Position numbers and translations under genes: made by a program. From a virus, in the IMG/VR virus record IMGVR_UViG_3300046817_000745, positions 1 to 64,000 of that record: a stretch of DNA of 64,000 nucleotides. One strand, given 5' to 3'. Positions 9,776-29,179 of this stretch are shown one piece after another. Position 1 is the stretch's first letter. Every line of letters begins with the position of its first letter. Under the pieces are notes generated by a model. That model ran no database searches. It had not been told where the DNA came from and worked only from the letters and a program-made list of their open reading frames with translations.

Positions 9776-10714
9776 ATGCCTGTCTACGCACGCGGTATCG
9801 ACTACGCGTGGCAGCACCCCAACATGCAAGCGATCAAGGACGCCGGGTACGACTACATCATCCGGTACTACTCACGTGATCCAAGCAAGAACCTGACCCG
9901 CGCCGAGGCCGATAGTGCAGCCAAGGTCGGCCTGTGGGTCGTCGGGAACTGGGAGCACACCGCGAACGACGCGCTCGGCGGCCACAGCGCAGGAGTCGCG
10001 AACGCACGCCTGGCCAGGTCGCTCGCCGATGCCTGCAGACAGCCGCTGACCCGGCCGATCTATGAGAGCGACGACTTCGACGTCACCCCCGAGCAGGAAG
10101 CCATCGTCACCGAGTACCTGCGTGGCTGGGACTCAGTCATCGGCGTCGCCGAGGTCGGCGAATACGCGGGCTTCTACCCGCTGCGCGCGCAGCGCGACGC
10201 GGGCGTGACATCGTGGGAGTGGCAGCCGCGGGCGTGGTCCGGCGGCCAGTGGGAGCCGCGGGTGAACATCCGCCAGGTCGGCACCGCGATCGTCGGCGGC
10301 GTCGAGGTGGACGTCAATGAGGCGTGGACAGCGGATTATGGGCAGTGGCGCCCGAATGTGGATCCTTTCGCGCCGATCCCGGCTCCAATTACGTCGAAGG
10401 AGATTGATATGGCACGACTGTTCGACGTCCAAGCGGACCCGGCGAACGCCGCGAACGCCCCCGGCATCTGGGCCGCGGTGGAGGGTGTGGGCTACTTCCA
10501 CGTGACGGACACGACCGAGCTGCCCACGTATCGGGCCGGGGGCACGCCGGAGGGGCCGGTGAGCTACGCGCAGCACCTGACGATGCTGGCAGCGTCAGCG
10601 AAGATCACCCTGTCGGATGCACAGGTCGCGACGCTGGGCGCGGCGATTGCGGCCGGGCTGCCGACACACATCACCGGCACCCAGACCACAACGGTTTCCG
10701 AGACGCTGGACTAG
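9776..10714 (+). CDS. Endolysin, DUF1906 (GH25-like) glycoside hydrolase
   Basis: GIDYA, IIRYY, KNLT..EA, PIY..DFD, VDVN motifs; separate C-terminal domain. Confidence 0.85.
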   Translation: MPVYARGIDYAWQHPNMQAIKDAGYDYIIRYYSRDPSKNLTRAEADSAAKVGLWVVGNWEHTANDALGGHSAGVANARLARSLADACRQPLTRPIYESDDFDVTPEQEAIVTEYLRGWDSVIGVAEVGEYAGFYPLRAQRDAGVTSWEWQPRAWSGGQWEPRVNIRQVGTAIVGGVEVDVNEAWTADYGQWRPNVDPFAPIPAPITSKEIDMARLFDVQADPANAANAPGIWAAVEGVGYFHVTDTTELPTYRAGGTPEGPVSYAQHLTMLAASAKITLSDAQVATLGAAIAAGLPTHITGTQTTTVSETLD

Positions 10715-11723: not shown

Positions 11724-12280
11724 CGATCCCGGTCTTCGCCCCCGGGGACGTCTGGGCGGTGGACGCACCCGGATTCGGACGTATCCCGATCATCCTCGGG
11801 TCGTGGTTGACCGGGCACCCTGCACCCACCGATCACGTCGTCACCGTCCACCACCAGGACAAGAATGGCGTGTGGTGGGGCATCGAGGGGCGTCCGTCCG
11901 GCGTCGGCTGGGTCGACATGTCCAGCTACTTCGCCACCAGGGCGCAGTTGCGCGCAGCGCGCGGCAACGTCCGCCAGCCACGCACGGACGCGCAGCGAGC
12001 AGCCGTCTGCAAGCTGATGGAGGGCCTGCTCGGCACGAGCTACGACTGGGTCGGTGGGATCGTCGCCGACTTCGACACCGCGCTGCACGCCGGGGAACTG
12101 GCCAAGTTGATCGATCACTGGTGGGGGTGGGACAACGGCGCCGCACAGCCCGCCCACGTGGTCTGTTCCAGTGCGGCGGCGTGGGCATATCGGAACCTGG
12201 GGCTCGTATCCCCGCCGGTGGGGAACGCCGAGCTGGTCACGCCCGCCGACTGGTGGCGGTTCAACGGACAATGGCAGTAG
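11720..12280 (+). CDS. Permuted papain-like NlpC/P60 amidase-like protein
   Basis: His (TDHV) before Cys (VCSS), G..YDW and VTPAD motifs; GTGA overlap. Confidence 0.7.
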   Translation: MTIPVFAPGDVWAVDAPGFGRIPIILGSWLTGHPAPTDHVVTVHHQDKNGVWWGIEGRPSGVGWVDMSSYFATRAQLRAARGNVRQPRTDAQRAAVCKLMEGLLGTSYDWVGGIVADFDTALHAGELAKLIDHWWGWDNGAAQPAHVVCSSAAAWAYRNLGLVSPPVGNAELVTPADWWRFNGQWQ

Positions 12281-12296
12281 AGAGGGATCGAACACC

Positions 12297-12626
12297 ATGA
12301 GCGGGCAGTACACCGACGAGCAGCTCGAGGCGGACCACCTCGCGACCGGGCACACCGCACCGCGGATCACCCCCGAGCACGTGGACGAGATGATCGCCCA
12401 CGTGCGTTTCTGGCAGCCCGAGGGCACCACGATGACCGTCTGCCTGTTGGAGCTGGTGAACGGGTTCCAGACCATCGGGTACTCCGCCGCGGCCAGCTCG
12501 GACAACTTCGACGTGGAGATCGGCCGCAACCTTGCCCGCGAGCACGCCCGCAGTCAGATCTGGGTCCTCGAGGGCTACCTGCTGCGCCAGCAGCTGCACG
12601 ACCAGGAAACTCAGCAGAAGGTGTAA
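12297..12626 (+). CDS. Gp49 (N4 gp49/Sf6 gp66) family protein, candidate nucleotide-signal sponge
   Basis: PRIT...V, TVC...L.NGF...G.SA....NFD.EIG, IW.LEGYLL. Confidence 0.85.
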   Translation: MSGQYTDEQLEADHLATGHTAPRITPEHVDEMIAHVRFWQPEGTTMTVCLLELVNGFQTIGYSAAASSDNFDVEIGRNLAREHARSQIWVLEGYLLRQQLHDQETQQKV

Positions 12627-13503: not shown

Positions 13504-13733
13504 TGTTCCCTGAGCTGCACAGCGAGCTGAGCACCGATATCCCGCCCTACGACGTGCTCAGCCGGGCCCGGATGGCGGTCCGGCTGGTCGAGCGGATCAT
13601 GACGCAGCACGGAGACATCAGGTGCTGCCGGTGCTGGTTCTGCCTCGCGGCGCGCGACCTTGGCTGCCAGGTGCGCCCGGAGTTCGTCGGAGCCGAGCCG
13701 TTCGCACCACTCAGCACGCCCGTGGCACGCTGA
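13503..13733 (+). CDS. Hypothetical Cys-rich protein
   Basis: TGATG coupling; CCRCWFC. Confidence 0.5.
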   Translation: MFPELHSELSTDIPPYDVLSRARMAVRLVERIMTQHGDIRCCRCWFCLAARDLGCQVRPEFVGAEPFAPLSTPVAR

Positions 13734-13737
13734 GTCC

Positions 13738-15456
13738 GTGACAAGCCTGCTGAAAGAGTGGGCACGGCGGATGGACCCCGAGGTGGTCGTCGAATCCGCC
13801 TCGACCCGCTGGCGGCGCATCGCCCGCCCGGAGCAGCTGCTGCCCGAAGGCGACTGGCGGGTCATCTATTTTCAGGGCGGCCGGGGAAGCGGCAAGACGA
13901 GGTCGGGGTCCGCAGCCCTGGCAGAGCTGATCGAATCCGACCTTGAACTGGACCCGCCCGGGGAGTACGGCATCATCGCTCCCACGTACCGGGACGCCTG
14001 GACGGTGTGCGTCGAAGGCGAGGCGGGGATCCTGCGGGCGCTGGGCACCACGGCCGGTGAGGTCAAGCACGGGCTCTCGCGCACGGTCGACTACGCATAC
14101 CGCAGCTACGGGGAGATCGGCCTGCGCAGCGGGCACGTGATCTACGTCGACTCGGCCGACGACGGCGCACTGCGCGTGCAGGGCAAGAACCTGCGCGCGG
14201 CGTGGGGTGACGAGATCGGCCTGTGGAAACGCTGGCAGATCGCATGGGAGGAGTCGGTCCGGTTCGCCGTCCGCAAGGGCTCGTCGAAGATCATCGTCAC
14301 GGGCACGCCGAAGGCGTCCCGCCCGGCACGCAAGCTGGTGCGACGGCTGATCCGCGCCGGACGCGGCGATGACGAGTTCGGCGACGGTCCGGTGATCGTG
14401 CGTCGGTTGCGCACGATCGACAACATCCTCAACCTGTCCGAATCGTTCTTCCGATCGGTGGTCGGCGCGGCCAAAGGCACTCGGCTCGAACGCCAGGAGC
14501 TCGAGGGCGAGCTGCTCGACGACGTCGCCAATGCGTTGTGGACGCGCGAGATGCTCGAAGCCGCGCAGTGCCCCGGCGTCGGCGAGGAGGGCGGTCCCGA
14601 GTACCTGACATCGATCAAGATAGGCGTCGACCCGTCCGACGGCACCGAGGAGTCCGACGAACAGGCGTACACCATCGCCGGCCTCGGGCCGATGCGTGAT
14701 CAGGTCTACGTCATCGAGTCGTGGGGAGGGCAAGAGGCTCCGGCCCCGTTCGCCCGCCGGTTCCTGATCCGGGCGGCCGAGCTGGGCGCGACCGTCATCG
14801 TGGAGAAGAACCACGGCGGCAAGTGGATGATGCAGCTGATCGAGCAGATACAGCGCGCACTGCTCGAGGAGGGGGTCATCAAGAACCGGGTACCGGTGGA
14901 AGAGATCCACGCGAGCGAATCCAAACGCACTCGAGCCGAGCCGATATCCGGCCTGTACGAACGCGGCATCGTCAAGCACTGCCAGAAGGTGGCCCGGTTC
15001 CAGCTGGCGGATCCAGACACCGGCAAGCTGCAGTGGCGCGAAGAGGCGGAGCGGTTCACCGAACTCGAGGACCAGCAGGCGACATTCATCGGGGCAGCCG
15101 GCGAGCGCTCCCCCGACCGGCTCGACTCCCTGGTGTGGGCGTGCAGCCCGTTCCTGTCTCTGAGCTTCGGCCCAGTGACGCGCGCCCGGGTGGCCCAGTG
15201 GGTCCGCAGCGGAGGACAACTGGCGGACAGCGTGCCACTGGATCGCGACCGCGGCGGCGACCCGATCGCCGCGCCGGACCCGCAGGATGAACGTGTCGCG
15301 GTGCCGAGGGCGTTGCGGCGCCAGCAGCTCCAGGGTGCGGCCGCGGCTGGTGGCTTCGGCGAGCTGGACGCGTGGGGTCCGCAGGATCCCGACGATGCAC
15401 CTGAAAACGGCCGGCGCGGCAATGTGCACTCGTGGTCCGGATCGTCGCCGTTCTAG
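13738..15456 (+). CDS. terL: Terminase large subunit
   Basis: Walker A GGRGSGKT, Walker B WGDE, TGTP, RNase H-like IGVDP and SPDRLD. Confidence 0.95.
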   Translation: MTSLLKEWARRMDPEVVVESASTRWRRIARPEQLLPEGDWRVIYFQGGRGSGKTRSGSAALAELIESDLELDPPGEYGIIAPTYRDAWTVCVEGEAGILRALGTTAGEVKHGLSRTVDYAYRSYGEIGLRSGHVIYVDSADDGALRVQGKNLRAAWGDEIGLWKRWQIAWEESVRFAVRKGSSKIIVTGTPKASRPARKLVRRLIRAGRGDDEFGDGPVIVRRLRTIDNILNLSESFFRSVVGAAKGTRLERQELEGELLDDVANALWTREMLEAAQCPGVGEEGGPEYLTSIKIGVDPSDGTEESDEQAYTIAGLGPMRDQVYVIESWGGQEAPAPFARRFLIRAAELGATVIVEKNHGGKWMMQLIEQIQRALLEEGVIKNRVPVEEIHASESKRTRAEPISGLYERGIVKHCQKVARFQLADPDTGKLQWREEAERFTELEDQQATFIGAAGERSPDRLDSLVWACSPFLSLSFGPVTRARVAQWVRSGGQLADSVPLDRDRGGDPIAAPDPQDERVAVPRALRRQQLQGAAAAGGFGELDAWGPQDPDDAPENGRRGNVHSWSGSSPF

Positions 15457-15650
15457 CCGGTCGGCGTTACCCTGCAGACAGACGTTCTGATCAACGACGG
15501 GTTGGAGCTGCAATGCCGTGGTGCGGGTTCGTCGGGATGCTTGGGCTTCCTGTGCTGGAGAAGAAGACGCCGCCGAGGGTCAACTGCGGGCGAAAGCGCG
15601 GAGTGACCAAGAGCGTGAAGTCTCGCCGGAAGCGGTGAGCCGACCAGCAA

Positions 15651-15665
15651 TACTCTGCTGACAAG
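15651..15665 (+). promoter_or_regulatory. Putative -10 (TACTCT) with CTGCTGACAAG box upstream of portal
   Basis: Inverted copy of the repeated 11-bp box. Confidence 0.5.
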
Positions 15666-15685
15666 CGATCACCTCGAGGAGAGCC

Positions 15686-17266
15686 GTGGCCAAGGCGCAG
15701 GGCAGTGAGGCGTCCGACATGGGGAAGGTCTACGCCTTCCCGGACATCAAGCCCGCATCCAAGCGTGAGCTGCTCGGCAAAGAGCTGGGGACTCAGTTCG
15801 ACCTCGGCCAGCGGCTGTTCGCCTGGTACGGCGAGGGCGACGTCTTCGACTACGGCGAGTACACCGCGCGGGACATGAAAGCGATGTTCCGCCGGGACGG
15901 CATCTGCTCGGCCGTCGAATCGGTGCTCACCCTGCCGATCCGCGAAGCCGACTTCTCGATCGAGCCCGCCAGGGGCGATCAGGGCGAGGCCGAGTTCGCG
16001 CGCGGCGTGCTGCTGACTCCGGACACCGACGGCGGCATGATGACCCCCGCGCACGAGCTGGTCGGGCAGGTCACCAGCGCGCAGATATACCGCCGGGCGT
16101 TCTTCGAGAAGGTGTGGAAGGTCCGCGAGTCGGACGGAAAGATCGTGTACGACAAGATCGCGTTTCGCCCGCCCGCCACCTGCCAGGCACGGTACAACTC
16201 GCGCACCGCTGTCCCGAACGGCTTCCGCCAGCAGGTCTGGCTGTTCGGCGGCAACCTGATGCTCACCAAGGAACAGAAGGTCCCCGGCTACGTCGACATC
16301 CCGAAGGTCCGTTCCTTCATCCACACACACGGTAAGCACCGCGAGCCGCTGATCGGCGTGTCGGAGATGGACGTCAGCTACTGGGTGTATCAGACCAAGA
16401 TGAAGCTGCTGTTCCTCTGGTACTACTTCCTGGAGAACCAGGCGATGCAGCGCATCGTCGCGTACGGCCCCGGCCAGCCCGAGGCCAACGCAGCCGCCGA
16501 TGACATCTCCCAGCTCAAGGGTGCGGGCGTGGTCGGGCTCATCCACGCGCCCGACGGTAAGAAGGCGTTCGAGGTCATATCCCAGCCACCCGACGCCGGC
16601 AAGTTCTTCACCGAAGCCATGATGTTCCTGGAGGGCTGGCAGACGCAGAGCGTGCTGGCCGGATTCATGGGACTGGTCGGTGGCGCGACGGCCGGCAAAG
16701 GTGCGTACTCGCTCTCTCAGGATCAGAGCGCGTTCTACCTCAAGTCTCGCCAGGCCGTCGCGAAGGAGATCGCTGAATCGATCTCCTTCGACGTCATGCG
16801 CCCGCTGGTGCTGCTCAACTACGGCCCTGGCGCTGCCTTCCCCAACTGGAAGTTCGGCCCGCTGCAGGATGAACAGCTGCAAGCGCTGATCACCTTGTTC
16901 GGCACACTGGCGGCCGCGCCCGTGCTGCACATCCCCATGCCGGTGTTCGACCTGATCACCGAGCGGATGTCGACGATCCTGCAGCTGGACATCGACCAGG
17001 TGCACACCGCGCTGGTGTCCACTGCGCAGCAGCGCGCCGAGCAGCTGGCGTCCCAACCGCCTCCGGGCATGCCGCCCGCGGCCGCGGCGGGGCTCGGGCA
17101 GGTGCAGGGTCTAGTCGGCGCGGCGCAGAATCTGACCCGCCAGGCTGCACAGAAACAGGGCGGTGTGCCCGAAGGACTGCGCGGTGTGCCGTCCGGTGCG
17201 CCCGCGCCACCCCCGGCGCCGTCTCGCCTCGGTGCGGGCGGGCAGAATCCGCCAGGGCCGGCATGA
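15686..17266 (+). CDS. Portal protein (DUF935/Mu gp29-like)
   Basis: Follows terL, 526 aa, GAYSLS, LV.LNYG...P motifs. Confidence 0.85.
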   Translation: MAKAQGSEASDMGKVYAFPDIKPASKRELLGKELGTQFDLGQRLFAWYGEGDVFDYGEYTARDMKAMFRRDGICSAVESVLTLPIREADFSIEPARGDQGEAEFARGVLLTPDTDGGMMTPAHELVGQVTSAQIYRRAFFEKVWKVRESDGKIVYDKIAFRPPATCQARYNSRTAVPNGFRQQVWLFGGNLMLTKEQKVPGYVDIPKVRSFIHTHGKHREPLIGVSEMDVSYWVYQTKMKLLFLWYYFLENQAMQRIVAYGPGQPEANAAADDISQLKGAGVVGLIHAPDGKKAFEVISQPPDAGKFFTEAMMFLEGWQTQSVLAGFMGLVGGATAGKGAYSLSQDQSAFYLKSRQAVAKEIAESISFDVMRPLVLLNYGPGAAFPNWKFGPLQDEQLQALITLFGTLAAAPVLHIPMPVFDLITERMSTILQLDIDQVHTALVSTAQQRAEQLASQPPPGMPPAAAAGLGQVQGLVGAAQNLTRQAAQKQGGVPEGLRGVPSGAPAPPPAPSRLGAGGQNPPGPA

Positions 17267-17970
17267 CCACCCCGACGCAGCAGCCCGCCGCACAGCCGCC
17301 GCAGCAGACGGGTCCGAGCGATGCGGATCTGGCCGCCGCTGCTGCGGCGGCACTCGCGGCCGCGATCACCGTCCCGGCCGTCACCGCACTTCTCGCGGGG
17401 CTGTACGCCAAAGCGGGTTTCGAGCGGCCGGCGCTGCAGTCGGCGCTACAGATCATCATGGCGATGCCTCCCGAGGCGACCGGGATCGCTGGGCCGGCCA
17501 CCGCGCAGGTCGCCTACCTCAACCAGGTCCGTCGCGGGCAGATGGTCGTGTCGATCGGCCGAAGGCTGACAGGTGACATACGCAGCGCACGGTCGGAGGG
17601 CCGCAGCGTGGTCACCGCACTGCTGAACGGCGTGACGCGCGAACGCCGCTACTTCGGGATGCACCGGGACGCGATCTGGTCCCGCGCGCAGGCGGCCATG
17701 GCCGTCGACATGGCGGCTCTGCAGTACGGTCTGCTGCTCGGCTGGCATACCCACCGGGATGACCGGACCACGCCGGAGTGCCTGGCGGCTGACGGGAAAA
17801 ACTTCCGCGCCGACTCGATGCCGTTGATCGGCTTCCCGGGCGCGACGCACTCCAAGTGCCGCTGCAAGCCGGTCGCGCCATACCCCGGCGCGCCGCTGTT
17901 GCCGTCGGCGGGCAACACCCCGGCGCGCACTGTCCGGTTGCAGCGTCGGATGGCGCGCAGGATGTCGTAA
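17263..17970 (+). CDS. Head morphogenesis (MuF/SPP1 gp7-like) protein
   Basis: W....DDRTT.EC...DG and H..CRC motifs after portal. Confidence 0.8.
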   Translation: MTTPTQQPAAQPPQQTGPSDADLAAAAAAALAAAITVPAVTALLAGLYAKAGFERPALQSALQIIMAMPPEATGIAGPATAQVAYLNQVRRGQMVVSIGRRLTGDIRSARSEGRSVVTALLNGVTRERRYFGMHRDAIWSRAQAAMAVDMAALQYGLLLGWHTHRDDRTTPECLAADGKNFRADSMPLIGFPGATHSKCRCKPVAPYPGAPLLPSAGNTPARTVRLQRRMARRMS

Positions 17971-17980
17971 GGAGGCGGGC

Positions 17981-18430
17981 ATGGAAGATCAGATGCGCCA
18001 GTACGCACCCTACCCGGCAGAGCTGGCAGATCTCGTGGCAGGGCTGAAGTACAAGTCCGAGGACGGGTGGACGTCCGGATTGGTCGACGTCGAACGCGAC
18101 CACGCCGGGGTGCACACCGGCCCGGCCGGAGGGCTGACGCTGGTCATCGTCCGGGTGGGGCCGGACACCTACGACCACGGGCGCATCCTGCGGGTCGGGC
18201 ACTACTTCCCGGTCCCGGCCGCCACGTACGATCGCCGATCCTGGCAACGCTGGCTGTTCGAGCGCGTCCGGGACGTGGAGACCCACGAGGCCATGGAGCA
18301 CTTCGTCATCGACGGCAAGCGGCCTTACGCGCCCAGCCACGGCCCGGGCAACGACCCGTACATGGTCCGCGAGACGGGCACCGACATGGATCGCAGGACC
18401 GCGTACACCGGAGAGGTGAACCCGGCATGA
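17981..18430 (+). CDS. Hypothetical protein with HExxE motif
   Basis: AAGGAGG RBS; ETHEAMEHF. Confidence 0.75.
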   Translation: MEDQMRQYAPYPAELADLVAGLKYKSEDGWTSGLVDVERDHAGVHTGPAGGLTLVIVRVGPDTYDHGRILRVGHYFPVPAATYDRRSWQRWLFERVRDVETHEAMEHFVIDGKRPYAPSHGPGNDPYMVRETGTDMDRRTAYTGEVNPA

Positions 18431-19794
18431 CGTTCGCGCGCAAGACCGAGGTGCCGCTGGTCGCGCTCAAGCAGCGCACGGCCAGCGGCATGCGTGCTCT
18501 GGCAGGCAAGATCGATGAGGAGCTGCCCGGGATGGTCGCGCCGCAGCACCTGCGCGACGCGGCCCGTGCGCTGGAATCCGGCAACCATGTCGGTGCAAAA
18601 CGCCATTTGCAGGCTGCAATGCACACCATGACACCGCTGTCCCTCACCCGGCACGGCGTGCTGGACGATCACGGCCACTCCCTGGCCAAGGTCAACATGG
18701 ACCTGATCAATCGGCACCACATGCTGGTCAGTGACCTGGAGGACGGCGAGAACCACAACCAGGGCGTCCGCGCCACTCCGGCAACCTTCACCCAGCCGAG
18801 CACCCTGCCGCTCGGCGGTTCGATGAACTCGCAGCAGGTCCGCGGTGCTGCGAGTGACGGCGGGCCCGGCGCACCCAAGACGGTGCGGACCGCGATGGTG
18901 CCTGCTCCGCGGCAGAATACCGGCACTGACCGGGCGGTGGCCGGCGGCCCGAAGGCTCCGAGCCGGAAGGAGAACCAGCTTCCCGCACGTCCGACGCCGC
19001 AGGCGGTGTTGTCCTGGGCAGATCTCTACGATCTCATCGAACTATCCACGCAGACGGGCCGACTGGCAGCCACACCCGCCCCTCGCGGTCGCCCGGGCGG
19101 ACCGGGGCTGTACGACGTCAAGGGCATGGGCCACACCGCCTATCTCCAGCAGATCGTGAAGGCGCTGATCCGTAAGCGGGGAATGCCGCCGGACAAGGCA
19201 TACGCGATTGCCCGGGGAGCGATTCGCCGCTGGGCGTCTGGCGGTGGCAAGGTGCATCCCGAAGTCCGGGCGGCTGCAACGGCTGCGGAGAGTGGAGAGC
19301 TCGCCCGCCAGAGGCAGGCAAAATCCGACCATGAACACACCGCTGACTCGTGGGCAGGTGTGTTCGACCTGGTCGGCACTGCGGCGGGTGCTGCTCTCGA
19401 CCCCCGGACGGTCACAGGCCAGTTCGGGGCCGGAGGCCAGCAACCACCGCCCGCTGCGGCGCCCGCGGCATCTCCGGCTGAGAAGAAACGTCAACTGCTG
19501 GCCCAGGCGGCTGCGGACCGGCAGAAGGCAAGAGACCTGGCCAAGCAGCTGGCCGTGTTAGTGGCCGCAAGCAAGGCGACGACCAAGACGACTGCGCAAG
19601 CCACCAAGGCGGGGGCAACAGGGAAGACAGCCAGCTCAACCCCGGCAAAGAAGGCTGCCACGGCTCCGGCAGCACAGACTGCCGGAGCAGCCAGGAAACC
19701 GACGAAGAAGCAACAGGTTGCTGCACTCAAAACGCAGATAGCCGCACTGCTCGCCAAAGCTGCACAAGAGACGGCACAGGCGGCGAAGCTGTGA
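18427..19794 (+). CDS. Multi-module head-region protein
   Basis: GGAGAGG RBS, ATGA overlap; modules separated by SWA..x(D/E)L linkers; Ala/Lys-rich tail. Confidence 0.75.
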   Translation: MTFARKTEVPLVALKQRTASGMRALAGKIDEELPGMVAPQHLRDAARALESGNHVGAKRHLQAAMHTMTPLSLTRHGVLDDHGHSLAKVNMDLINRHHMLVSDLEDGENHNQGVRATPATFTQPSTLPLGGSMNSQQVRGAASDGGPGAPKTVRTAMVPAPRQNTGTDRAVAGGPKAPSRKENQLPARPTPQAVLSWADLYDLIELSTQTGRLAATPAPRGRPGGPGLYDVKGMGHTAYLQQIVKALIRKRGMPPDKAYAIARGAIRRWASGGGKVHPEVRAAATAAESGELARQRQAKSDHEHTADSWAGVFDLVGTAAGAALDPRTVTGQFGAGGQQPPPAAAPAASPAEKKRQLLAQAAADRQKARDLAKQLAVLVAASKATTKTTAQATKAGATGKTASSTPAKKAATAPAAQTAGAARKPTKKQQVAALKTQIAALLAKAAQETAQAAKL

Positions 19795-22700
19795 CACGGC
19801 CGACTGAGACAGGAATCAGCAGCCAGGCGGCCGATCTGCTACCCGGTCCGGACGATCGAACTGCAGTGGCCATGTTCACAGCACACCGGATCGACGACAT
19901 GCTCACAGCCCTGGCGCACGCCGATGAGCGGATGCAGGCCATGCGCACGTCCGACGGCGAACTACGGCACTACCACAGCCTGCACTTCGACGAGCACATC
20001 GCGAACGTCATGCAGGACGCAGGCCAGCTCAAGGACAACATGCTGGAGCACTACCCCGCCGAAGCCGCCGAGTGGCGGGCGCTGGTGCAGGTGATGGATC
20101 TGGTGTCGGGGTACAGCCTTAATCCGCGATCCGGCATGATCTCCCTTGACCTGCCGCCCGGTGCGCTGGCTCCGGTATCGGGTGGCGTGGACGACCACCA
20201 CATCACGGTGGTCTACCTCGGGCCCGACGTGGATGACGAGGCGTTCGCGGAGGCGTGCCGCCGGGCACAGGAAGCGGCATCGGCGATGCCGGGGCCATTG
20301 ACGGGCACAGTCGGCGGAATCGGCTCGTTCAAGCCGTCGGACGGCAGCGATGGGAAGACACCCGCATGGGCCGGTGTCGTGCTGCCCGGTGCCGACCGGA
20401 TCCAGGACGCACTGAAAGATCTATCGGCCAGCCAGCACAAGGACTGGAAGCCACACGTCACCGTGGCGTACGTGGGTCCTGGCGAGTCACTTCCCGACCC
20501 GGTCCCGCAGACTCCCGTGACGTTCACACACCTGTCGGTGCACCGCGGCCGGGATGAAGTGGTCCGCTACCCGCTCGGCGGCGGCCCGGTGGACATGGCG
20601 AAGTCGGTGAGCTCGACAGCCAAGGCCGCATCGTTCGCGCACCTCCTGCAGTCGATCGCGTATGACGCATCACACACCCAGCGGCACTCGAAGGCGATGC
20701 TCGCCGACACAGACGAGACGTGCTGGCAATTCGACGCAGACCACGCCGAGAAGCACATGCACGGCACCGCCGGGCACGTCCACAAACTCGCCGAGCTGAT
20801 CCACGACAACTACCCCGCCGAAGAGAAGTGGCTGGGGAAACTGACGGCGAAGGAAGATCTGTCCACCGTCTCCGACGGGGCGCTGGAGCTCGGCATTGCA
20901 GGACAGCTCGGACACGCCGGCACCTCGATCGGCGGACAGGTGCTGCTCGCCGGCTGGGAGCAGCAGACTCGCGACGCGCAGGGGCGGTGGGTGAAAGGTC
21001 TGCGTTTCTCGGTCAAGCCCTACGGCGTGGTCGAGGACAGGTTCGCAGGCGGGAATGAGAAGGGCGAGATTTGGAACAAGGTCCCGACAGCGCACCGGAT
21101 TACGGCGCACCACGGCAAGACCGAGGTCGGGCACCTGGACTGGAACGTCCACCACGGCGGCGTCGACATGGTGCACACCGAGGAGAAATTCCGCGGCCGC
21201 GGCGTGGCCATGAACCTGTTCGACCGGGCTCGGGAGTACGCCGCTGAAAACGGCCTGATACTGCCGAACACCGAGCACGCGATTCCGATCTCGCCCTCGG
21301 GGCTCGGCTTCCACGAGGCACTGTCACAGCGCAACCGTCCCGGCTCCGAGGTGACCGGTCAGGTGCCTCTGATCCCCCGAAAGGGCGCCAACCGAACCAC
21401 CGCGCTGTCACTCGAGCTGGGCAGCTGGCACGATGCCTGGGTCCACGAGATGCGCGGCGCGCACGGCGAGTGGATCCGCGGCGCGGAAGGACAGGGCCCT
21501 GCCCCGAGCGACCGCACCCCCTACCGGGTTCCGCCGCACAGCCGACTGGTCAACCTGCGCTCGCCGTACCCCGACCCGGCCGACCATCCGTTCTTCAAGG
21601 CACACCCGATGAGCAGCGCCAACATCGTGCACGCCTACTCGGTGGCCACTGAGCAGCAGAAGGCGCAGGGCATGCGCTGGTATGCCGACGCCGGTCTGCT
21701 CGGCGCCGCAATCGCGCACGGCGATCACCATCTCGGGGCCGGGCTGCTCTCGGCCTACTCACCGCAGACGTCGTGGCCGATCAACATGTTCAACGCCGCG
21801 CGCTCGGTCGAGATGGGACGTCCGATCGGCCCGCACGAGGGCACGACCGTGATGACCAGTCACGCCAACGCCGCACGCAAGATCATGGATGGCGCCAGCT
21901 TTGATGAGGCACTGCCCGGCCCGAAGACCAACGCATTCGCCCGGCTGATCGAGACCGAGGGGAAAGACAAGCCGGATGATCCGTTCGGGGAGGTTGTGGT
22001 CGACAGACATGCTGTGTCCGTGGCGGCCGGAGAACGGCTCAGTGACAAGGAACCGGTTCCGATCGGTGATGACAGGTACTACCAGGTGGTCGCCGACGAA
22101 TATCGCAAGGCAGCGATCGATGCCAGCCGGCGGGAGGGCTACACGATCTCGCCCAGCCAGATGCAGGCGATCACTTGGCTGGTGCAGCAGTCGGCGAATG
22201 AGGCACAGGACGCTCATACGCCGTCAAAGGGTTCAGCGGCGTCGATGGCGAAAGGCCGGGTCACGCGAACTGCCAACGCCTGGAAGAACTGGCTCGCTTA
22301 CGCCCGGCTGCAGAACGTCGCTACCGCATCCGGCACTACAGCCCTTGCGACAGAGCTAGAGCTGCACAACGCCTGGATGACCGAGCTGCGGGATGAGCGC
22401 GGTCGATTCGCGACGTCGGGCGGTGTGATGTCCGAGCACGTCAACCCGGAAGGGTTCTCGCTGCACCAGCGCACGGGACAACCGCCGCGCGGCGGATTCA
22501 TGGTCTCCCTGCCGGGACACACGCACCAATACCCGGACTCGATCATGAAAGACAAGCACAAGCTCGCCGAGGCGCTCGACAAGATGCTGATGGACGAACG
22601 TGAGACCTTCAGCAAACCTGATGTCTACTTGGGTGGGTGGGTCAGCGACGGTATGCTGTGGTTGGACCCGTCGGAGAACGTCGCCGACCGTGATGAGGCG

Positions 22701-22928
22701 GTCAAGACGGGGCAGAGCCGGGATCAGGTCGCAATCTGGGACGTCGTAGGGGGTCGGGAAATTGACACCGGAGGAACAGGCGGGGCCACCACCGAGCACG
22801 CCACCCCGGGCATTTCTGGCAGTCCCCCCGGGCTACGCGGACTTACCCGAAGCCGAGCGCAAGGCCGAAGCCCTGAAGCTGGCGCAGGCATTGCAGGACA
22901 GGCAATTAGGGTCGATCTCGGGCGATAA
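19791..22928 (+). CDS. Polyvalent head-operon protein: His-rich repeats, 2H phosphoesterase, GNAT-like, glycosylase-like (DUF7178-like) and SAM-lyase-like domains
   Basis: HIT (20199) and HVT (20454) motifs; FRGRGVA; WY..SPQTSW..N..GPKT.AF..VDRHA..QAITW; YLGGW..LWLD.S..DRDEA..DQVAIWD. Confidence 0.8.
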   Translation: MTRPTETGISSQAADLLPGPDDRTAVAMFTAHRIDDMLTALAHADERMQAMRTSDGELRHYHSLHFDEHIANVMQDAGQLKDNMLEHYPAEAAEWRALVQVMDLVSGYSLNPRSGMISLDLPPGALAPVSGGVDDHHITVVYLGPDVDDEAFAEACRRAQEAASAMPGPLTGTVGGIGSFKPSDGSDGKTPAWAGVVLPGADRIQDALKDLSASQHKDWKPHVTVAYVGPGESLPDPVPQTPVTFTHLSVHRGRDEVVRYPLGGGPVDMAKSVSSTAKAASFAHLLQSIAYDASHTQRHSKAMLADTDETCWQFDADHAEKHMHGTAGHVHKLAELIHDNYPAEEKWLGKLTAKEDLSTVSDGALELGIAGQLGHAGTSIGGQVLLAGWEQQTRDAQGRWVKGLRFSVKPYGVVEDRFAGGNEKGEIWNKVPTAHRITAHHGKTEVGHLDWNVHHGGVDMVHTEEKFRGRGVAMNLFDRAREYAAENGLILPNTEHAIPISPSGLGFHEALSQRNRPGSEVTGQVPLIPRKGANRTTALSLELGSWHDAWVHEMRGAHGEWIRGAEGQGPAPSDRTPYRVPPHSRLVNLRSPYPDPADHPFFKAHPMSSANIVHAYSVATEQQKAQGMRWYADAGLLGAAIAHGDHHLGAGLLSAYSPQTSWPINMFNAARSVEMGRPIGPHEGTTVMTSHANAARKIMDGASFDEALPGPKTNAFARLIETEGKDKPDDPFGEVVVDRHAVSVAAGERLSDKEPVPIGDDRYYQVVADEYRKAAIDASRREGYTISPSQMQAITWLVQQSANEAQDAHTPSKGSAASMAKGRVTRTANAWKNWLAYARLQNVATASGTTALATELELHNAWMTELRDERGRFATSGGVMSEHVNPEGFSLHQRTGQPPRGGFMVSLPGHTHQYPDSIMKDKHKLAEALDKMLMDERETFSKPDVYLGGWVSDGMLWLDPSENVADRDEAVKTGQSRDQVAIWDVVGGREIDTGGTGGATTEHATPGISGSPPGLRGLTRSRAQGRSPEAGAGIAGQAIRVDLGR

Positions 22929-22953
22929 CACAGGCTCAAGCAGCGCAGATTAA
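22762..22953 (+). CDS. Possible small overlapping protein (different frame) at 3' end of polyvalent gene
   Basis: 63-aa TTG ORF with a protein-like helical segment LPEAERKAEALKLAQAL; weak RBS. Confidence 0.35.
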   Translation: MTPEEQAGPPPSTPPRAFLAVPPGYADLPEAERKAEALKLAQALQDRQLGSISGDNTGSSSAD

Positions 22954-23049
22954 CCCCCGATACGCCGCAGAGATACGTTTCCGTTCGGCAAGCGCTATCA
23001 TGCCCACAGAAACGATCTCTGCGCAGGTGCGCACGGGAGGTTGGGCCAC

Positions 23050-24054
23050 ATGGCGACGTACGCCGGAACGCGGCCGGGTTCAGGCGACAACTTCAAGAAG
23101 TTGTCGGGAACCCTGGCAGCCCGCGGAGCGCACAATCCCGATGCCCTGGCGGCCTGGATCGGCCGGGGCAAGTACGGGCGCAAGGGCATGTCGAAACTGT
23201 CCGCCAAGGGCGGCCACCACGCACACAGCAACCCTCTCGGGCTCGCCTCGGAAGAAGGCGGCGAGCACAGCCACGTCGTGACGCACAGCCACGAGTTCGC
23301 ATCGCTCGCGCACACGCACGAGGACGCCGGGGCCGGATACGAGCCCGGCGGGAGTATGCGCGAGGGCCAGGGTTCGTCCGGCGGTGTGGGTGACTTCGAG
23401 AGCGGCTCGTCCAAGCTGCGCACGCCGCAGGAGGGTGACCAGCGCTCGACCGGCTTCCGCAGTCAGCGTCTCGGCGTCGGCGCGCGCGCCGGGAACTACG
23501 GATCCATGTCCAACACCGGCGGCCGGGCTGTGTCCCTGGCGCAGCGGCTGCCCGTGACCAGCCCGTGGGACGTGGTGATCAGCCGGGGCATCGACGGCAG
23601 CGCGCAGGTGAGGCACCGCCGCGGCGGTACGGGTATCGGATCGATCCGGCGTATAGACGGCGGCGGATGGACTGCCACCCCCGACGGCGGCAGTCCGTTG
23701 CCGGGCCACCCGCACCAGAGGGCCGCGCTCATGGAGCTGCTCGGCACCTGGAACCGCAGTGCGACCACACCCGACCGGGCCGGGGTGCCATACGCCCAGC
23801 CGGCTCAGCAGACTCCCTTGATGGAGAAGTTCGGTGTTCCGGCGATCCGCGCGCTGGCCACTCCGACGGTGTCGGCCGGAGACGGTCCGCGGACCACCAT
23901 GGCTGACGCCAGCTCCGGGTCCGACGACACGGACGGCCTGACGCCGAAGGGCAAGGCGATCTACGCCAAGCTGCGGAGCCGCGGCTTCCCGGCCGAGCGG
24001 GCACTCGCGTTCGCCAAGCGCGCGCAGAACATGGGTCCGAAGGCCGCAGCGTGA
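23050..24054 (+). CDS. Multi-module head-region protein
   Basis: GGGAGG RBS; ALAAWIGRGKYG module, His-rich segment, C-terminal basic helical module. Confidence 0.75.
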   Translation: MATYAGTRPGSGDNFKKLSGTLAARGAHNPDALAAWIGRGKYGRKGMSKLSAKGGHHAHSNPLGLASEEGGEHSHVVTHSHEFASLAHTHEDAGAGYEPGGSMREGQGSSGGVGDFESGSSKLRTPQEGDQRSTGFRSQRLGVGARAGNYGSMSNTGGRAVSLAQRLPVTSPWDVVISRGIDGSAQVRHRRGGTGIGSIRRIDGGGWTATPDGGSPLPGHPHQRAALMELLGTWNRSATTPDRAGVPYAQPAQQTPLMEKFGVPAIRALATPTVSAGDGPRTTMADASSGSDDTDGLTPKGKAIYAKLRSRGFPAERALAFAKRAQNMGPKAAA

Positions 24055-25235
24055 CCACCGCCGTCCTCACCCCATTCACCGGCACACGGGCTGTGGAACT
24101 GGGCAACCGGGTGTGGCGCAAACGTGTCCTGCCCGTCGGCGATGTCGAGTACAAGGGCCGGATGCTGCACTTCACCCGCGAGTACCTGGCCGGGCTGGCG
24201 CAGGCGTTTCACGAGCGTGCCTATGATCAGGTGCCGTTCCAGCTGGCCGGGGATGACAACCGGCACACTAACGACGTCGAGCGGTTCGGCGGCCAGATCA
24301 CCTCTTTCGACCTGGAGAAGGACGGGCTGTATCTCAAGCTCGAGGCCACCGAGCGCGGTGAGAAGGTCTTGAAGGACAATCCGAATCTCGGAGTGTCCGC
24401 CAGGATCGTGGAGGACTACGCGCGCAGCGACGGCAAGTTTTTCACCGCAGCCGTACAGCACGTGCTCGGCACGCTCGATCCGCGCATCCCCGCACTTGGC
24501 GGATGGCAGGCAGTCGAAGCGTCCAACGACGCCGACACAGTCTTGGATCTTTCAACATCGGTATTCGCGGGCGAGGAGAAGCCAGTGCCTGAATTCACCA
24601 CCGAGGAGCGCGGGCGGCTCGCGAAGCTGCTGCAGATCCCCGAGGACAAGATCGATGCCTTGACGAAGCTGGCCGGCACGGACCTCGATCTGCTGGCCGG
24701 CGAGGGCCAGGGTGTGGGCAGCGCGGAGCTGAGTGACGAAGAGCTGGCGCAGCTGATCGCCGACATGCCCGAGGAAGAGCTGGCCGCACTGCAGGCCGAG
24801 TTCGAGAACGAGGTCGCGGCCGCGGCGCCCGGGCTGTCCAATCAGACCGCGATGGCGATCGAGATGGCGAACGTGCGCGCCGACGAGAACGAGCGGCAGC
24901 TCTCGGTCATCACCGCTGAGCTGGACGCCCAGCGTTTCGCCGCGGAGAAGGCCCGGTTCGTGCGCGACTCCGGCGTACCGCCGTTCATCATGGACCTGGC
25001 GCAGCCGCTGCTGGAGGGGACCGGGCACACCGTCGACCTGTCGAATGGCAAGGCGGTCGACGCCGGGCAGATCGTGCGCAAGATCCTCACCGAGTACGCC
25101 AAGGCCGCCCGGATGATGGACCTGTCGATCGAGATGGGTTCGCCGATGGACGAGCCCGACCAGCAGGGCGCCGCCGCGGAAGCGCGCGACGACATCGTGG
25201 GCCGGGCCCGTGAACAGATGTTCGGGATGCGGTAG
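24051..25235 (+). CDS. Prohead protease (Mu gpI-like) fused to scaffold
   Basis: N-terminal His (NRHT) and Ser (GVSA) in herpes/Mu protease-like pattern; acidic helical C-terminal half; precedes capsid genes. Confidence 0.8.
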   Translation: MTTAVLTPFTGTRAVELGNRVWRKRVLPVGDVEYKGRMLHFTREYLAGLAQAFHERAYDQVPFQLAGDDNRHTNDVERFGGQITSFDLEKDGLYLKLEATERGEKVLKDNPNLGVSARIVEDYARSDGKFFTAAVQHVLGTLDPRIPALGGWQAVEASNDADTVLDLSTSVFAGEEKPVPEFTTEERGRLAKLLQIPEDKIDALTKLAGTDLDLLAGEGQGVGSAELSDEELAQLIADMPEEELAALQAEFENEVAAAAPGLSNQTAMAIEMANVRADENERQLSVITAELDAQRFAAEKARFVRDSGVPPFIMDLAQPLLEGTGHTVDLSNGKAVDAGQIVRKILTEYAKAARMMDLSIEMGSPMDEPDQQGAAAEARDDIVGRAREQMFGMR

Positions 25236-25239
25236 TCCG

Positions 25240-25443
25240 ATGCCACGATACGTCGTGACCACGACGACCACAGTCGCCGGCAGCGGGTACAACCAGCCGC
25301 CGCGCACGGTGGTCACGCGCCAGGTGGTCGAGCTGAACGCAGCCGAGGTCACAGCGGTCGGAGCTGGCAACCTGCGCGCGGTGTCCGCGTCGAACACGCA
25401 CGAGACGTCCGGCGAGGCGTTCGCCGTGAGCAACGGATTCTGA
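25240..25443 (+). CDS. Small virion-associated protein ending AVSNGF
   Basis: Between scaffold and decoration gene; TAVGAGNL motif. Confidence 0.7.
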   Translation: MPRYVVTTTTTVAGSGYNQPPRTVVTRQVVELNAAEVTAVGAGNLRAVSASNTHETSGEAFAVSNGF

Positions 25444-25456
25444 GGAGGCAGGGCTG

Positions 25457-25960
25457 ATGTCTGCGGTTCTCCCGCACTACAAGCAAGGGCCGATCAACAA
25501 GCAGGTGTCCGCGCTGGTCATCGGCGGAATGATCGTGGCTCCGACGACCGCCGGCACGAACCCGAGCGCCGATCTTTCCGTGGCCCCGTGTTCGGCCGCC
25601 AACACCCGGTACTACCTGGGCGTGGCCGGCAAGGACGCCAACGTCATCGCGGTGCAGACCGGCGCGGCCAACACGTACGGCCAGCCCGCGATCGACATCA
25701 GCGTGCTGGACGACTACACCGCCGTCTACTACGGCGGTGTGGACATCTGGGTCTGGTATCAGGGCGCGGTGGCGGAGGGTGATCTTCTGATCATCAGCGC
25801 CACCACGGCCGGAACGGTGATCACCAACGGCGCCGGCACCGACCCGACGAAGATCGTGGGCAAGTGCACACACCCCGGCGGAGTCAGCGCCGGCATGCTC
25901 GTCGCCAACACGCTCATCGGCGGCAGCACATACTTCCTGGGCCGAGCCAGGATCTTCTGA
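25457..25960 (+). CDS. Capsid decoration/cement protein
   Basis: Position before capsid gene; LGVA..DA, GDLL, IVG pattern; GAGGAGG RBS. Confidence 0.7.
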   Translation: MSAVLPHYKQGPINKQVSALVIGGMIVAPTTAGTNPSADLSVAPCSAANTRYYLGVAGKDANVIAVQTGAANTYGQPAIDISVLDDYTAVYYGGVDIWVWYQGAVAEGDLLIISATTAGTVITNGAGTDPTKIVGKCTHPGGVSAGMLVANTLIGGSTYFLGRARIF

Positions 25961-25972
25961 GAGGGATGGCCG

Positions 25973-26884
25973 ATGCCGACAGGTGCACGCGGTTATTCGG
26001 ATTCACCCCGGATAACCGTCAATGAGCTGCTGAAGGACCCGCTGGTCATCCCGGCGTTGATCCTGGACATCACGCAGAACGAGTTCATCGTGGACTCGGT
26101 GCTGCGTAACGGCGGAGCGGCGCCGTCCGGCGCGGTCAGGTACTCCGAGTCGACGCCGCTGTACGCGGACGACTACCCCGAGGTGCGAGCCGAGTTCGGC
26201 GAGGTCCCGGTCGTGCCGACCTCGATCGGCATCCCGCGCGTGGTGTTCACCCACGAGCGCGCGATGGCGATCATGGTCTCGGACGAGATGCGCCGACGCC
26301 AGACCATCGACCCGGTGACCCGCCAGCTGCTGCAGGTCAAGAACACGATGGTCTACAGCTGGAACACGGCGTTCTACTCCGCCGTGGTGGCCAACGCCTC
26401 GATCCAGACCCTCGCGGTGTCCAATGCCTGGGCCAGCGCTTCGGCGACGATCCGCGCGGACATCGCGCAGGCGTGCTACCTGGTGGAGAACGCCAACATC
26501 GTCTCTCCGTCCGGCGTGACGCAGTGGCTGGGCTTCGAAGCCGACACGCTGATCATCAACCACGGCACCAAGAACTCGCTGCTGCAGAGCTCGACGTTCG
26601 CCGCGCCGTACATCGGCGACATCGCGTCGGAGAACCTGCTGTACACCGGCGTGTTGCCACAGAAGATCTTCAACCTGGACGTGCTGGTCTCTCGGCAGGT
26701 CCCGGCCGGCAACGCGATCGTCATGCAGCGGCACCGGGCCGGCTTCTACGCCGATGAGCTGCCGTTCCTCGCGGGTCCGCTCTACCGGGACGAGCCGCGC
26801 AAGACCTGGCGCACGGACACCCAACGGGCCAGCGCCATCGGCCTGGACCAGCCTCTGGCCATCACGCTGCTGTCAGGAGTGTGA
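25973..26884 (+). CDS. Major capsid protein (HK97-fold)
   Basis: 303 aa; AEFGEVP, DTLIIN, DQPLAI..L.GV; position. Confidence 0.9.
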   Translation: MPTGARGYSDSPRITVNELLKDPLVIPALILDITQNEFIVDSVLRNGGAAPSGAVRYSESTPLYADDYPEVRAEFGEVPVVPTSIGIPRVVFTHERAMAIMVSDEMRRRQTIDPVTRQLLQVKNTMVYSWNTAFYSAVVANASIQTLAVSNAWASASATIRADIAQACYLVENANIVSPSGVTQWLGFEADTLIINHGTKNSLLQSSTFAAPYIGDIASENLLYTGVLPQKIFNLDVLVSRQVPAGNAIVMQRHRAGFYADELPFLAGPLYRDEPRKTWRTDTQRASAIGLDQPLAITLLSGV

Positions 26885-26885
26885 G

Positions 26886-27281
26886 ATGCCCCGCTACCAG
26901 GCGCTGATGAACCTCTCCCTGCCACGCAAGGGAGACGTCGAGAAGCAGACCGACCTGATCCCGCCTGGCGACACGTTCGAAGCGGACGAAGCCCGGGTGC
27001 AGAACCTGCTGAATCCGAGGTACGGACCGCCGCGGATCCGCAGGATCGAAGAGCAGGGCCAGGATATGCCGCTGATCCTGCCGCGGCACGTCTCCAACCC
27101 GCAGTTCGGGCCACCGGCGGGCACCCGGCCCGATCCCAAGGGGTCCAGCGCCATTCAGGTTCTGTCGAAGATCCCGGAGCTCACCGAGCCGATGCCGGAC
27201 AGCGAGCAGCAGCCGGCGGAAGAGGCGGTTGACCTGCCGCCGCGGCGTGTCCGCGCAGCAGCTCGAACCGCGGCAGGGTAA
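26886..27281 (+). CDS. Hypothetical head-associated protein
   Basis: Directly after capsid gene; PGDTFE small-domain motif. Confidence 0.7.
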   Translation: MPRYQALMNLSLPRKGDVEKQTDLIPPGDTFEADEARVQNLLNPRYGPPRIRRIEEQGQDMPLILPRHVSNPQFGPPAGTRPDPKGSSAIQVLSKIPELTEPMPDSEQQPAEEAVDLPPRRVRAAARTAAG

Positions 27282-28570: not shown

Positions 28571-29179
28571 ATGCCCGGGGCGCCTCTTCTCTACACACCG
28601 CCGAACTACACCACCACCAATGTGGTGTACGGGACCGGCATCCTGTTCACCGCAGCGACCGGCACCGCGGTTCCGTCCGATCAGAACCTCGGCGTGGGAA
28701 GTGCATGGACCGGCCTGGGGTGGGCGTACGTCGGCTCAACCGAGGCCGGTGTCACGGTCACGTTCAACCCGACCACGCAGAACATCTCGGTCGAGGAGCA
28801 GCCCACACCGGTCGGTGTGGCCGTCAACACCGCCGAGCTGCAGGTCACCACCTCCATGTCGGAGGAGACCCTGTCCAACGTCAACCTCGCGTACGGCAAC
28901 TGCGGCACGGTCGCGATCACTCCGCCCGGGGCGGGACAGCCGGGTAAGTCGGTGCTGACGCTGTCGACCAACTTCACCAGCGTGGCGGTCGCAGTGGTCG
29001 GCAAGAACCTGTACGGCTTCGCCCGGGTGGTCTTCGTCCCGGTCGTCGTCTCCGCCGGCCAGGTGCAGACCGCGTACCGCCGCGCCGCGCAGCAGCGGCT
29101 CTACCCGCTGACCCTCTCGGCGATCTGCCCGTTCAACCAGATCACCTACACCGACCTGACGGCAATCGCGACCTCGTAA
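28571..29179 (+). CDS. Major tail (tube) protein
   Basis: W.YVGST..GV, I.VE, M.E.TL.N..LA pattern, Thr/Val-rich, 202 aa. Confidence 0.8.
   Translation: MPGAPLLYTPPNYTTTNVVYGTGILFTAATGTAVPSDQNLGVGSAWTGLGWAYVGSTEAGVTVTFNPTTQNISVEEQPTPVGVAVNTAELQVTTSMSEETLSNVNLAYGNCGTVAITPPGAGQPGKSVLTLSTNFTSVAVAVVGKNLYGFARVVFVPVVVSAGQVQTAYRRAAQQRLYPLTLSAICPFNQITYTDLTAIATS

Follow-up and report, generated by a model that had tools for sequence, protein, structure and literature searches.

Phage-type polyvalent proteins carry several unrelated activities in a single chain. In the survey of Iyer, Burroughs, Anand, de Souza and Aravind published in 2017, 2H domains occur in such proteins fused to MuF or to the portal, where they were proposed to act as RNases or as degraders of defence nucleotide signals, while the class itself was predicted to be packaged in the phage head and injected (PMC5512222); the same prediction is repeated for MuF- and portal-fused 2H domains in section 3.4.5 of PMC9503650. 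Here, we analyse the gene of 1045 amino acids (aa) located at 19791-22928 on the plus strand of the window, i.e., the 64,000 nucleotides (nt) that make up bases 1-64000 of the 72,872-bp IMG/VR virus record IMGVR_UViG_3300046817_000745. This record belongs to an uncultured phage, has direct terminal repeats and a guanine-cytosine (GC) content of ~67%, and is rated 100% complete. According to our reading, to which we assign a probability of about 0.6, the gene encodes a phage-type polyvalent protein that is likely packaged in the head, injected and active before phage gene expression. The first-pass annotation of this DNA had also seen in it a packaged multi-enzyme cargo: the general idea stands, but it was already in print (PMC5512222, PMC9503650), and the two enzyme labels that came with it, an Acb1-like 2H enzyme and an S-adenosylmethionine (SAM) lyase, are unsupported.

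The protein shares with the published class (PMC5512222) the association of several unrelated activities in one chain, the portal-terminase head-gene setting, domains that recur both solo and recombined, and the combination of 2H and GNAT, which are both listed for that class. At least two disparate domains are joined in the chain (2H, GNAT-like, HhH-GPD-like DUF7178 and a fourth domain); the genes of the large terminase (TerL), the portal and MuF lie upstream, and those of the capsid, the tail tube and the tape measure downstream; finally, the same domains are found elsewhere on their own and in variable architectures. It differs from the published proteins in being free-standing instead of fused to MuF or the portal, in having no zincin-like peptidase, and in adding DUF7178 and a phrog_17808-type domain.

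A modular chain with relatives fused to head proteins

The gene and its parts are as follows (coordinates in the window, with residue numbers in brackets):

19791-22928 (+): whole gene of the proposed polyvalent protein (P0001), 1045 aa, from the list of open reading frames (ORFs), the translation, third-position GC and homologues
19791-20105 (+): N-terminal module M1 (1-105), no family, conserved in P0003-P0010
20106-20585 (+): 2H phosphoesterase module, LigT-like (106-265), from Pfam and HxT motifs
20589-20951 (+): module M3 (267-387), no family
20955-20990 (+): linker peptide copy 1, WEQQTRDAQGRW
20997-21410 (+): GNAT-like acetyltransferase module (~403-540), motif RGRGVA
21438-21473 (+): linker peptide copy 2, WVHEMRGAHGEW
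21513-22370 (+): DUF7178 module (575-860; Pfam core 609-800), HhH-GPD glycosylase-like predicted fold
22374-22409 (+): linker peptide copy 3, WMTELRDERGRF
22443-22781 (+): alpha/beta C-terminal domain (885-997), phrog_17808, ending in EIDTGGTG
22782-22925 (+): low-complexity tail ending in the half linker GIAGQAIRVDLGR, from the translation

BLAST mapping of 87 homologues revealed that each of these modules travels separately, different relatives sharing different subsets, with Zeta-toxin-like kinase, ADP-ribosyltransferase, Nudix, alpha/beta-hydrolase, PI3/4-kinase-like and SprT-like domains as swapped-in partners. A Phage_portal (PF04860) and/or Phage_Mu_F (PF04233) domain is present in the same chain in 54 of the 87 homologues, which upholds the earlier proposal of a multi-enzyme late head-module protein. 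The 2H modules of these fused relatives, among which are the actinophage-like portal/MuF-2H fusions (P0020-P0085; PMC9503650), are 44–76% identical to the one studied here (60–76% for the close relatives) and have the same two HxT motifs; in our phage, however, the portal, MuF and the 2H chain are spread over three genes, which follow one another in the same order.

The setting is conserved as well: the order portal-MuF-g455-this locus-g337-g394-g167-capsid is kept in four related viral loci on four contigs, in which the capsid is 93–99% identical, versus 46–76% for the modules. In these loci, the GNAT module is missing or replaced; moreover, the locus is split into a 646-aa and a 564-aa gene in L002 and L003 (7008-8699 plus the upstream ORF), while in L005 (6924-9533) the 2H part is absent and extra C-terminal sequence has been gained. 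The polyvalent gene is a cargo locus that changes fast, while the rest of the head operon is conserved. At a larger scale, a MuF match was found in 15 of 20 viral records with the C-terminal domain, and in 13 of the 20 the gene carrying this domain lies on the same strand as the MuF match and begins 93-8067 nt downstream of it. An example from a cultured phage is gp8 of Streptomyces phage JackieB (L049, 2773-6282), a 1169-aa “hypothetical protein” encoded directly after a MuF-type gene and bearing a C-terminal ADP-ribosyltransferase exoenzyme domain (E 7.8e-15).

The modules are punctuated by a 12-residue peptide, W-x2-E-x-R-x3-G-x-W, which stands ahead of the GNAT-like, DUF7178 and C-terminal modules alike. 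Elsewhere in the whole window, the pattern has a single match, at 10214, which is seemingly unrelated. Up to five copies occur in the relatives P0011 and P0012, and the same peptide is often found at the start of solo DUF7178 and solo C-terminal-domain proteins. The very end of the chain, GIAGQAIRVDLGR, resembles the first half of the linker and is coded by a repeat of the sequence preceding copy 1, the exact 15-nt direct repeat GGCATTGCAGGACAG (encoding GIAGQ) being present both at 20892-20906, ahead of that copy, and at 22887-22901, in the C-terminal tail. Another exact 15-nt direct repeat, encoding YPAE, links M1 (20050-20064) to M3 (20809-20823); these two modules, which flank the 2H domain, are weakly alike (BLASTP E 0.024, 23% identity over 69 aa). 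The 15-nt repeats are possible traces of cassette recombination, while the linker pattern suggests a cassette boundary or a tag, the repeated peptide being a candidate capsid-loading tag, a candidate cleavage site or both. A loose regular expression for the linker hit 125 of 264 proteins, but Nudix boxes and chance strings are among what it picks up, so that it was not used as a count.

The 1045-aa ORF itself is real, and all the motifs that the first-pass annotation had picked out in it lie where it had placed them. Third-position GC in its frame is 0.74-0.89 over 19900-22600 and drops to 0.56-0.67 in the C-terminal tail. There is a 4-nt overlap between its GTG start and the stop codon of the gene before it. 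In the database, the gene is called from M28 (P0002, 1018 aa), but we favour the GTG because the homologues P0009 and P0010 align with the protein from residue 1. The LPD families of Pfam gave no match in the 1045-aa protein. Against the phage collection, megablast of the region 15000-27000 returned no match, and tblastn of the whole protein returned only DUF7178 matches (55 records, all below 60% identity).

In another frame, a 63-aa ORF (…PPGYADLPEAERKAEALKLA…; 22762-22953, +) overlaps the final 167 nt of the gene. Its translation is 53–59% conserved, in the same alternative frame, in the related contigs L002, L005 and L006, and in L006 a main-frame stop is located inside the stretch that matches it. 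Counts of differences by codon position favour neither frame in the overlap, where the conservation could reflect dual coding, a shifted C-terminus or chance.

The four recognisable modules

For the 2H module, the motifs HIT and HVT recognised by the first-pass annotation at 20199 and 20454 are confirmed. Pfam matches the module (2_5_RNA_ligase2, PF13563), and both motifs, H137-I-T (20199-20207) and H222-V-T (20454-20462), have H137, T139, H222 and T224 invariant in an alignment of 29 sequences (this protein and 28 short relatives). The related family PF02834 reaches 20.0 bits, below its cut-off of 23.3. When the 29-sequence profile was searched against PDB sequences, the nearest entries were the archaeal LigT-like proteins 2fyh (E 0.089) and 1vdx (E 0.55), aligned across both motifs, all other rows being due to chance. 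The Acb1 structures were presumably among the sequences searched; as the profile reaches only these LigT-type proteins, the proposed likeness to Acb1 is not borne out. Acb1 is a small solo protein, unlike the multi-module chain. T4 Acb1, an anti-CBASS (cyclic-oligonucleotide-based anti-phage signalling system) 2H phosphodiesterase (PMC9117128), has in common with our module its 2H superfamily and its phage origin, but the profile search uncovered no sequence or profile link between the two. Viral 2H enzymes form a diverse group, some members of which degrade cyclic dinucleotides; 13 of 75 phage 2H enzymes are part of multi-domain proteins, some of them with acetyltransferases (bioRxiv 10.1101/2025.08.21.671373). 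LigT-like 2H enzymes classically heal RNA 2',3'-cyclic phosphate ends (PMC5512222).

The GNAT-like module proposed at first pass from its FRGRGVA, which starts at residue 467 (~nt 21189), is retained as probable: R-G-R-G-V-A fits motif A (R/Q-x-x-G-x-G/A), and the Atlas feature matches are viral GNAT clusters (score 0.91). Among PDB sequences, the motif-A match is to dopamine N-acetyltransferase, at E 0.44, while a comparison with the acetyltransferase of phage Triumph (E 0.52) showed no relation.

The third module matches Pfam DUF7178 over residues 609-800 (nt 21615-22190) at E 3.9e-37; it is the only Pfam family to match this stretch at E<=0.01, the HhH-GPD profile giving no match. Its AlphaFold model, computed from a 27-sequence alignment, is all-helical with a predicted local distance difference test (pLDDT) score of 91.8. 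In a VIA-align comparison of this model with 48,161 chains, HhH-GPD-type glycosylases are the top 24 of the 50 matches listed (Z 10.3-4.8, 87-206 aligned residues), unrelated rows appearing from Z 4.4 onwards. The best match is T. maritima Ogg (3n0u; Z 10.3, root-mean-square deviation (rmsd) 3.6, 175 aligned residues); other matches include the queuine-salvage DUF2419 protein 7ugk (Z 8.8), H. pylori MagIII (1pu6, Z 8.8), OGG1 (Z 7.4), endonuclease III (2abk, Z 6.6), AGOG, Mag1, MutY, AlkA and MBD4. The Pfam match and the uniform top of this list sustain the glycosylase-like call made at first pass. Moreover, EALPGPKTNAFARLI...GEVVVDRHAVSVA of our protein can be read alongside EALPGVGRKTANVVL...TIAVDTHIFRV of E. 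coli Nth: Asp738, in VVDRHA, is invariant and Lys712, in EALPGPKT, is at least 90% conserved across 27 sequences (D164 and K138 in module numbering), the equivalence of Lys712 coming from reading EALPGPKT beside EALPGVGRKT of Nth. Their counterparts there would be Lys120 and Asp138, the catalytic residues of Nth. The module resembles the HhH-GPD glycosylases (Nth, 3n0u, 1pu6) in its predicted fold and, tentatively, in a hairpin-helix Lys and a VD-x-H Asp in similar order and spacing. They differ in that the terminal Fe-S cysteine cluster of E. coli Nth has no counterpart in DUF7178, and in that no significant sequence or profile match connects them, hmmsearch of DUF7178 against solved glycosylase sequences giving chance rows only.

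Several results count against this fold assignment. VIA-align warns that helical models may reach Z ~13 by arrangement alone, and the best Z here, 10.3, is lower. Foldseek, which the first-pass annotation had named as a check, gave only a weak match (AGOG 1xqo, E 0.8). Finally, hhalign of DUF7178 with E. coli Nth set VVVDRHA on IAVDTHI at E 0.43 over 15 columns, which is not significant. Owing to the warning on helical arrangements, what carries the fold argument is that the top rows all come from one family, together with the motifs. As the queuine-salvage DUF2419 protein scores about as well (Z 8.8), a nucleoside or nucleotide is a possible substrate according to the model.

Cultured phages of Streptomyces, Microbacterium, cyanobacteria and roseobacters carry DUF7178, and some phage annotators already label it “glycosylase”. 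This is the case in phage Triumph, where a solo DUF7178 gene lies 3 kb from the right genome end, with an acetyltransferase gene two genes away and an OCR-like antirestriction gene eight genes away; in the T7-like cyanophage S-CBP2, the solo DUF7178 is gene 5, among the first genes. Because the solo genes occupy such early-looking genome-end regions, they suggest a function needed at the start of infection. The word “glycosylase” is absent from the main text of PMC5512222 (its supplementary domain lists may hold such domains) and our literature search did not find the name DUF7178, so the fold assignment and the place of the module in such a chain may be new in print; at the level of titles and abstract openings, a literature search on phage virion HhH-GPD glycosylases gave nothing pointing to this family. 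A bolder proposal, which we regard as doubtful, is that DUF7178 proteins are unrecognised phage bifunctional (Lys/Asp) HhH-GPD glycosylases, deployed at the very start of infection, either expressed as early genes (Streptomyces phages, cyanopodoviruses) or, as in our phage, preloaded in the capsid via a universal 12-residue tag. Their target, in DNA or in a nucleotide, would be a base linked to defence or specific to the host, which they would excise. Under this proposal, the tag would address cargo to the capsid in general, as a label shared by thousands of phage modules.

The C-terminal domain belongs to a large family. phrog_17808 covers residues 929-987 (E 1.5e-9), and the motif YLGGW...DQVAIWD is at residues ~944-983, so that the first-pass annotation was right in delimiting a domain there. 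The family has 1503 cluster representatives at E<=1e-3, 238 at 1e-10 and 42 at 1e-30, in the form of solo proteins of ~110-250 aa or inside chains of up to 3343 aa, and it was found in 47 viral loci of 34–69% GC; none of 55 members was matched by a Pfam family. Within the family, the residues that do not vary are G, G, G-W, Q and E-I-D-T-G-T-G, with seven of the eight positions of EIDTGGTG invariant and the remaining one at least 90% conserved in 26 viral proteins. The model of the domain (pLDDT 89.7) has a strand-helix order that we read as a beta-alpha-beta-beta-alpha-beta core.

An Orf1/T3-type SAM lyase, the enzyme suggested at first pass, was tried for this domain and rejected, none of Foldseek, VIA-align, BFVD, profile and Pfam searches supporting it. 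SAM lyases of the Svi3-3 type form obligate trimers of ferredoxin-like subunits, with active sites at the interfaces and with Gly56, Tyr58, Glu69 and Gln104 conserved (PMC7877911). What Svi3-3, Orf1 and T3 SAMase would share with our domain, according to our reading of its model, is a small alpha/beta architecture of the ferredoxin-like class, which we do not count as evidence because this broad class is too common; the Svi3-3 residue set could not be placed on the domain, no alignment having been obtained. When the model was compared with the PDB by Foldseek, no match reached E<=0.001 and the matches listed did not include a SAM lyase, and the 55-sequence profile retrieved no SAM lyase from PDB sequences. 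In VIA-align, the SAM lyase 6zm9_A ranks 13th (Z 2.5, rmsd 3.6, 70 aligned residues), which is at noise level, as 75 chains have Z>=2 and the highest score, Z 4.0, goes to a GyrI-like protein that is unrelated. BFVD yielded 22 matches at E<=0.001, consisting of uncharacterised phage proteins, entries without a name and polyvalent chains labelled Zeta-toxin or XkdF; no row is named SAM lyase among the 50 matches listed, many of which are nameless. Atlas features likewise point to viral hypotheticals, with one cluster auto-named “putative HAD hydrolase”, a label that we do not trust. A three-copy complex prediction scored 0.00, which gives no answer and counts neither way. Altogether, a SAM lyase at this place appears very improbable.

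Gene neighbourhood

The head genes around the locus are the following:

13660-15456: large terminase (TerL)
15686-17266 (+): Mu-type portal (Pfam Portal_Mu, E 9.4e-30)
17263-17970 (+): MuF (Pfam Phage_Mu_F, E 1.1e-6)
17981-18430: 149-aa protein (phrog_1540)
18427-19794 (+): 455-aa gene, start fixed from the frame plot and the translation
23041-24054 (+): 337-aa protein, Gly/His-rich, no family match
24051-25235 (+): 394-aa protein with an acidic C-terminal half, no family match
25973-26884 (+): major capsid protein (phrog_1650, E 2e-72)
28571-29179: tail tube
32610-36071 (+): tape measure

The first-pass annotation had located the gene between MuF and a prohead protease. The order is loosely right, but the 149-aa and 455-aa genes separate MuF from the 1045-aa gene on one side and the 337-aa gene precedes the 394-aa gene, which was probably the one meant, on the other. 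As for the protease, its label is unverified because neither the 337-aa nor the 394-aa neighbour matched any Pfam, PHROG (E<0.09), NCBIfam or PDB sequence family. Homologues of the 394-aa protein were found in 12 phage records (11 Streptomyces phages and one Microcystis phage), all annotated as hypothetical; in JackieB, the gene of the homologue has no name and immediately precedes those annotated as scaffolding and capsid. Small genes lie between the 394-aa gene and the capsid. A promoter and terminator scan of 17000-26000 gave nothing beyond shuffled expectation.

The mechanically listed ORF of the 455-aa gene opens at 18067, i.e., 360 nt too early. This gene has no family match and a long Ala/Lys/Thr-rich tail; it is conserved at 68–81% in three of the four related loci and at ~42–44% in the fourth, and its product may be a DNA-binding internal head protein. 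Further away, the C-terminal part of the tape measure includes a segment resembling transglycosylases (matches to several PHROG families of these enzymes; Pfam SLT, E 0.017), and a Gp49/Sf6-gp66 family protein (12171-12626, +; Pfam Phage_gp49_66, E 3.9e-23) is encoded just upstream of the terminase region. The window also encodes an FtsK/SpoIIIE-like protein (1368-3575, +), an Rv2525c-like glycoside-hydrolase-like protein (9776-10714, +) and, from its minus strand, a DNA polymerase A and an SNF2 helicase, both at 52-57 kb. Neither a tyrosine integrase nor a resolvase was matched anywhere in the complete 72,872-bp record, which is why we consider the phage as probably virulent and not temperate.

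Proposed role and alternative readings

If the polyvalent reading is correct, the protein would be made late alongside the head proteins and taken into the procapsid, with the repeated peptide as the candidate loading tag; it would then enter the cell together with the DNA, and its enzymes would be at work ahead of any phage gene expression. The likely targets would be cyclic or 2'-5' nucleotide signals, or RNA ends bearing a 2',3'-cyclic phosphate, for the 2H module; a base, within DNA or a nucleotide, for the DUF7178 module; and a protein or a small-molecule amine for the GNAT module. The gene, its modules and their shuffling, the place kept in the head operon and the portal/MuF fusions of this 2H clade elsewhere are observations; packaging, injection, cleavage and anti-defence action of the 1045-aa protein are inferred. 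At the level of titles, the literature yielded no virion-proteomic evidence for the class. Several observations pull the other way. This protein is not fused to the portal or to MuF, from which two genes separate it, and MuF was not found in five of the 20 records with the C-terminal domain, while the gene is 7.7 kb upstream in one record and 23.8 kb away in another. The Pfam match of the 2H module (E 4.6e-6) is barely over threshold, at 27.2 bits for a cut-off of 27, and that of the GNAT-like module (Acetyltransf_CG, E 1.2e-5) is below it, at 25.8 bits for a cut-off of 30. Concerning the processing implied by the word “polyprotein” in the first-pass annotation, no peptidase domain was found in the 1045-aa chain and none is recognisable in the adjoining genes. 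Lastly, PADLOC, which models defence proteins and not counter-defence proteins, gave no match.

One alternative is the specific version suggested at first pass, in which a precursor cut by a prohead protease would release an Acb1-type anti-CBASS nuclease and an Orf1/T3-type SAM lyase directed against type I restriction-modification or BREX (bacteriophage exclusion). The 2H active site is indeed intact, and some viral 2H enzymes do degrade cyclic dinucleotides (bioRxiv 10.1101/2025.08.21.671373); similarly, the core predicted for the C-terminal domain belongs to the broad class of the SAM lyase subunit (PMC7877911), and 6zm9_A does appear in the structure list. Yet, its Z of 2.5 is within the noise, no Foldseek match at E<=0.001, profile match or row named SAM lyase among the BFVD matches listed accompanies it, the four Svi3-3 residues find no place in the domain, the 2H profile reaches only LigT-like structures and no protease family was detected beside the gene, all of which makes this version very unlikely. 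The hypothesis of a toxin cargo of the MuF polymorphic type, serving competition between bacteria instead of counter-defence, is just as improbable in our eyes: relatives do carry Zeta-toxin-like and ADP-ribosyltransferase modules, and MuF polymorphic toxins of temperate phages have been described (PMC5576092), but our chain has neither a MuF fusion nor a toxin-type domain, the phage is probably not temperate given its complete genome devoid of integrase or resolvase matches, and no immunity gene has been verified, the small overlapping 63-aa ORF being unproven.

Somewhat less remote, though still unlikely, is an unpackaged enzyme chain that would work late in the cytoplasm, repairing RNA ends or DNA or modifying host factors, the position in the head operon then reflecting late timing only. 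It would agree with the free-standing nature of the protein in this phage, with the classical role of LigT-like 2H enzymes in healing RNA ends (PMC5512222) and with the organisation of L002 and L003, whose two separate genes (646 and 564 aa) imply that a single chain is not essential. However, the same 2H clade is fused to the portal or MuF in 54 of the 87 homologues, the position after MuF is conserved, and the solo DUF7178 genes in early-looking genome-end regions suggest a function at the start of infection instead of its end. We retain a polyvalent protein that would be packaged with the DNA as the preferred reading.

To our knowledge, the prediction that polyvalent proteins packaged in the head serve phages as a first-strike weapon dates from 2017, and almost none of these proteins has been tested. 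The present locus provides a compact example from a complete genome, for which JackieB gp8 is a tractable cultured analogue. It also gives DUF7178 a predicted fold and candidate catalytic residues, as a hypothesis, and delimits a large domain family without Pfam match (1503 cluster representatives), mostly located downstream of MuF, while keeping an unsupported SAM-lyase label from spreading. Finally, if the idea of a tag is true, the repeated peptide could serve to load chosen proteins into phage capsids.

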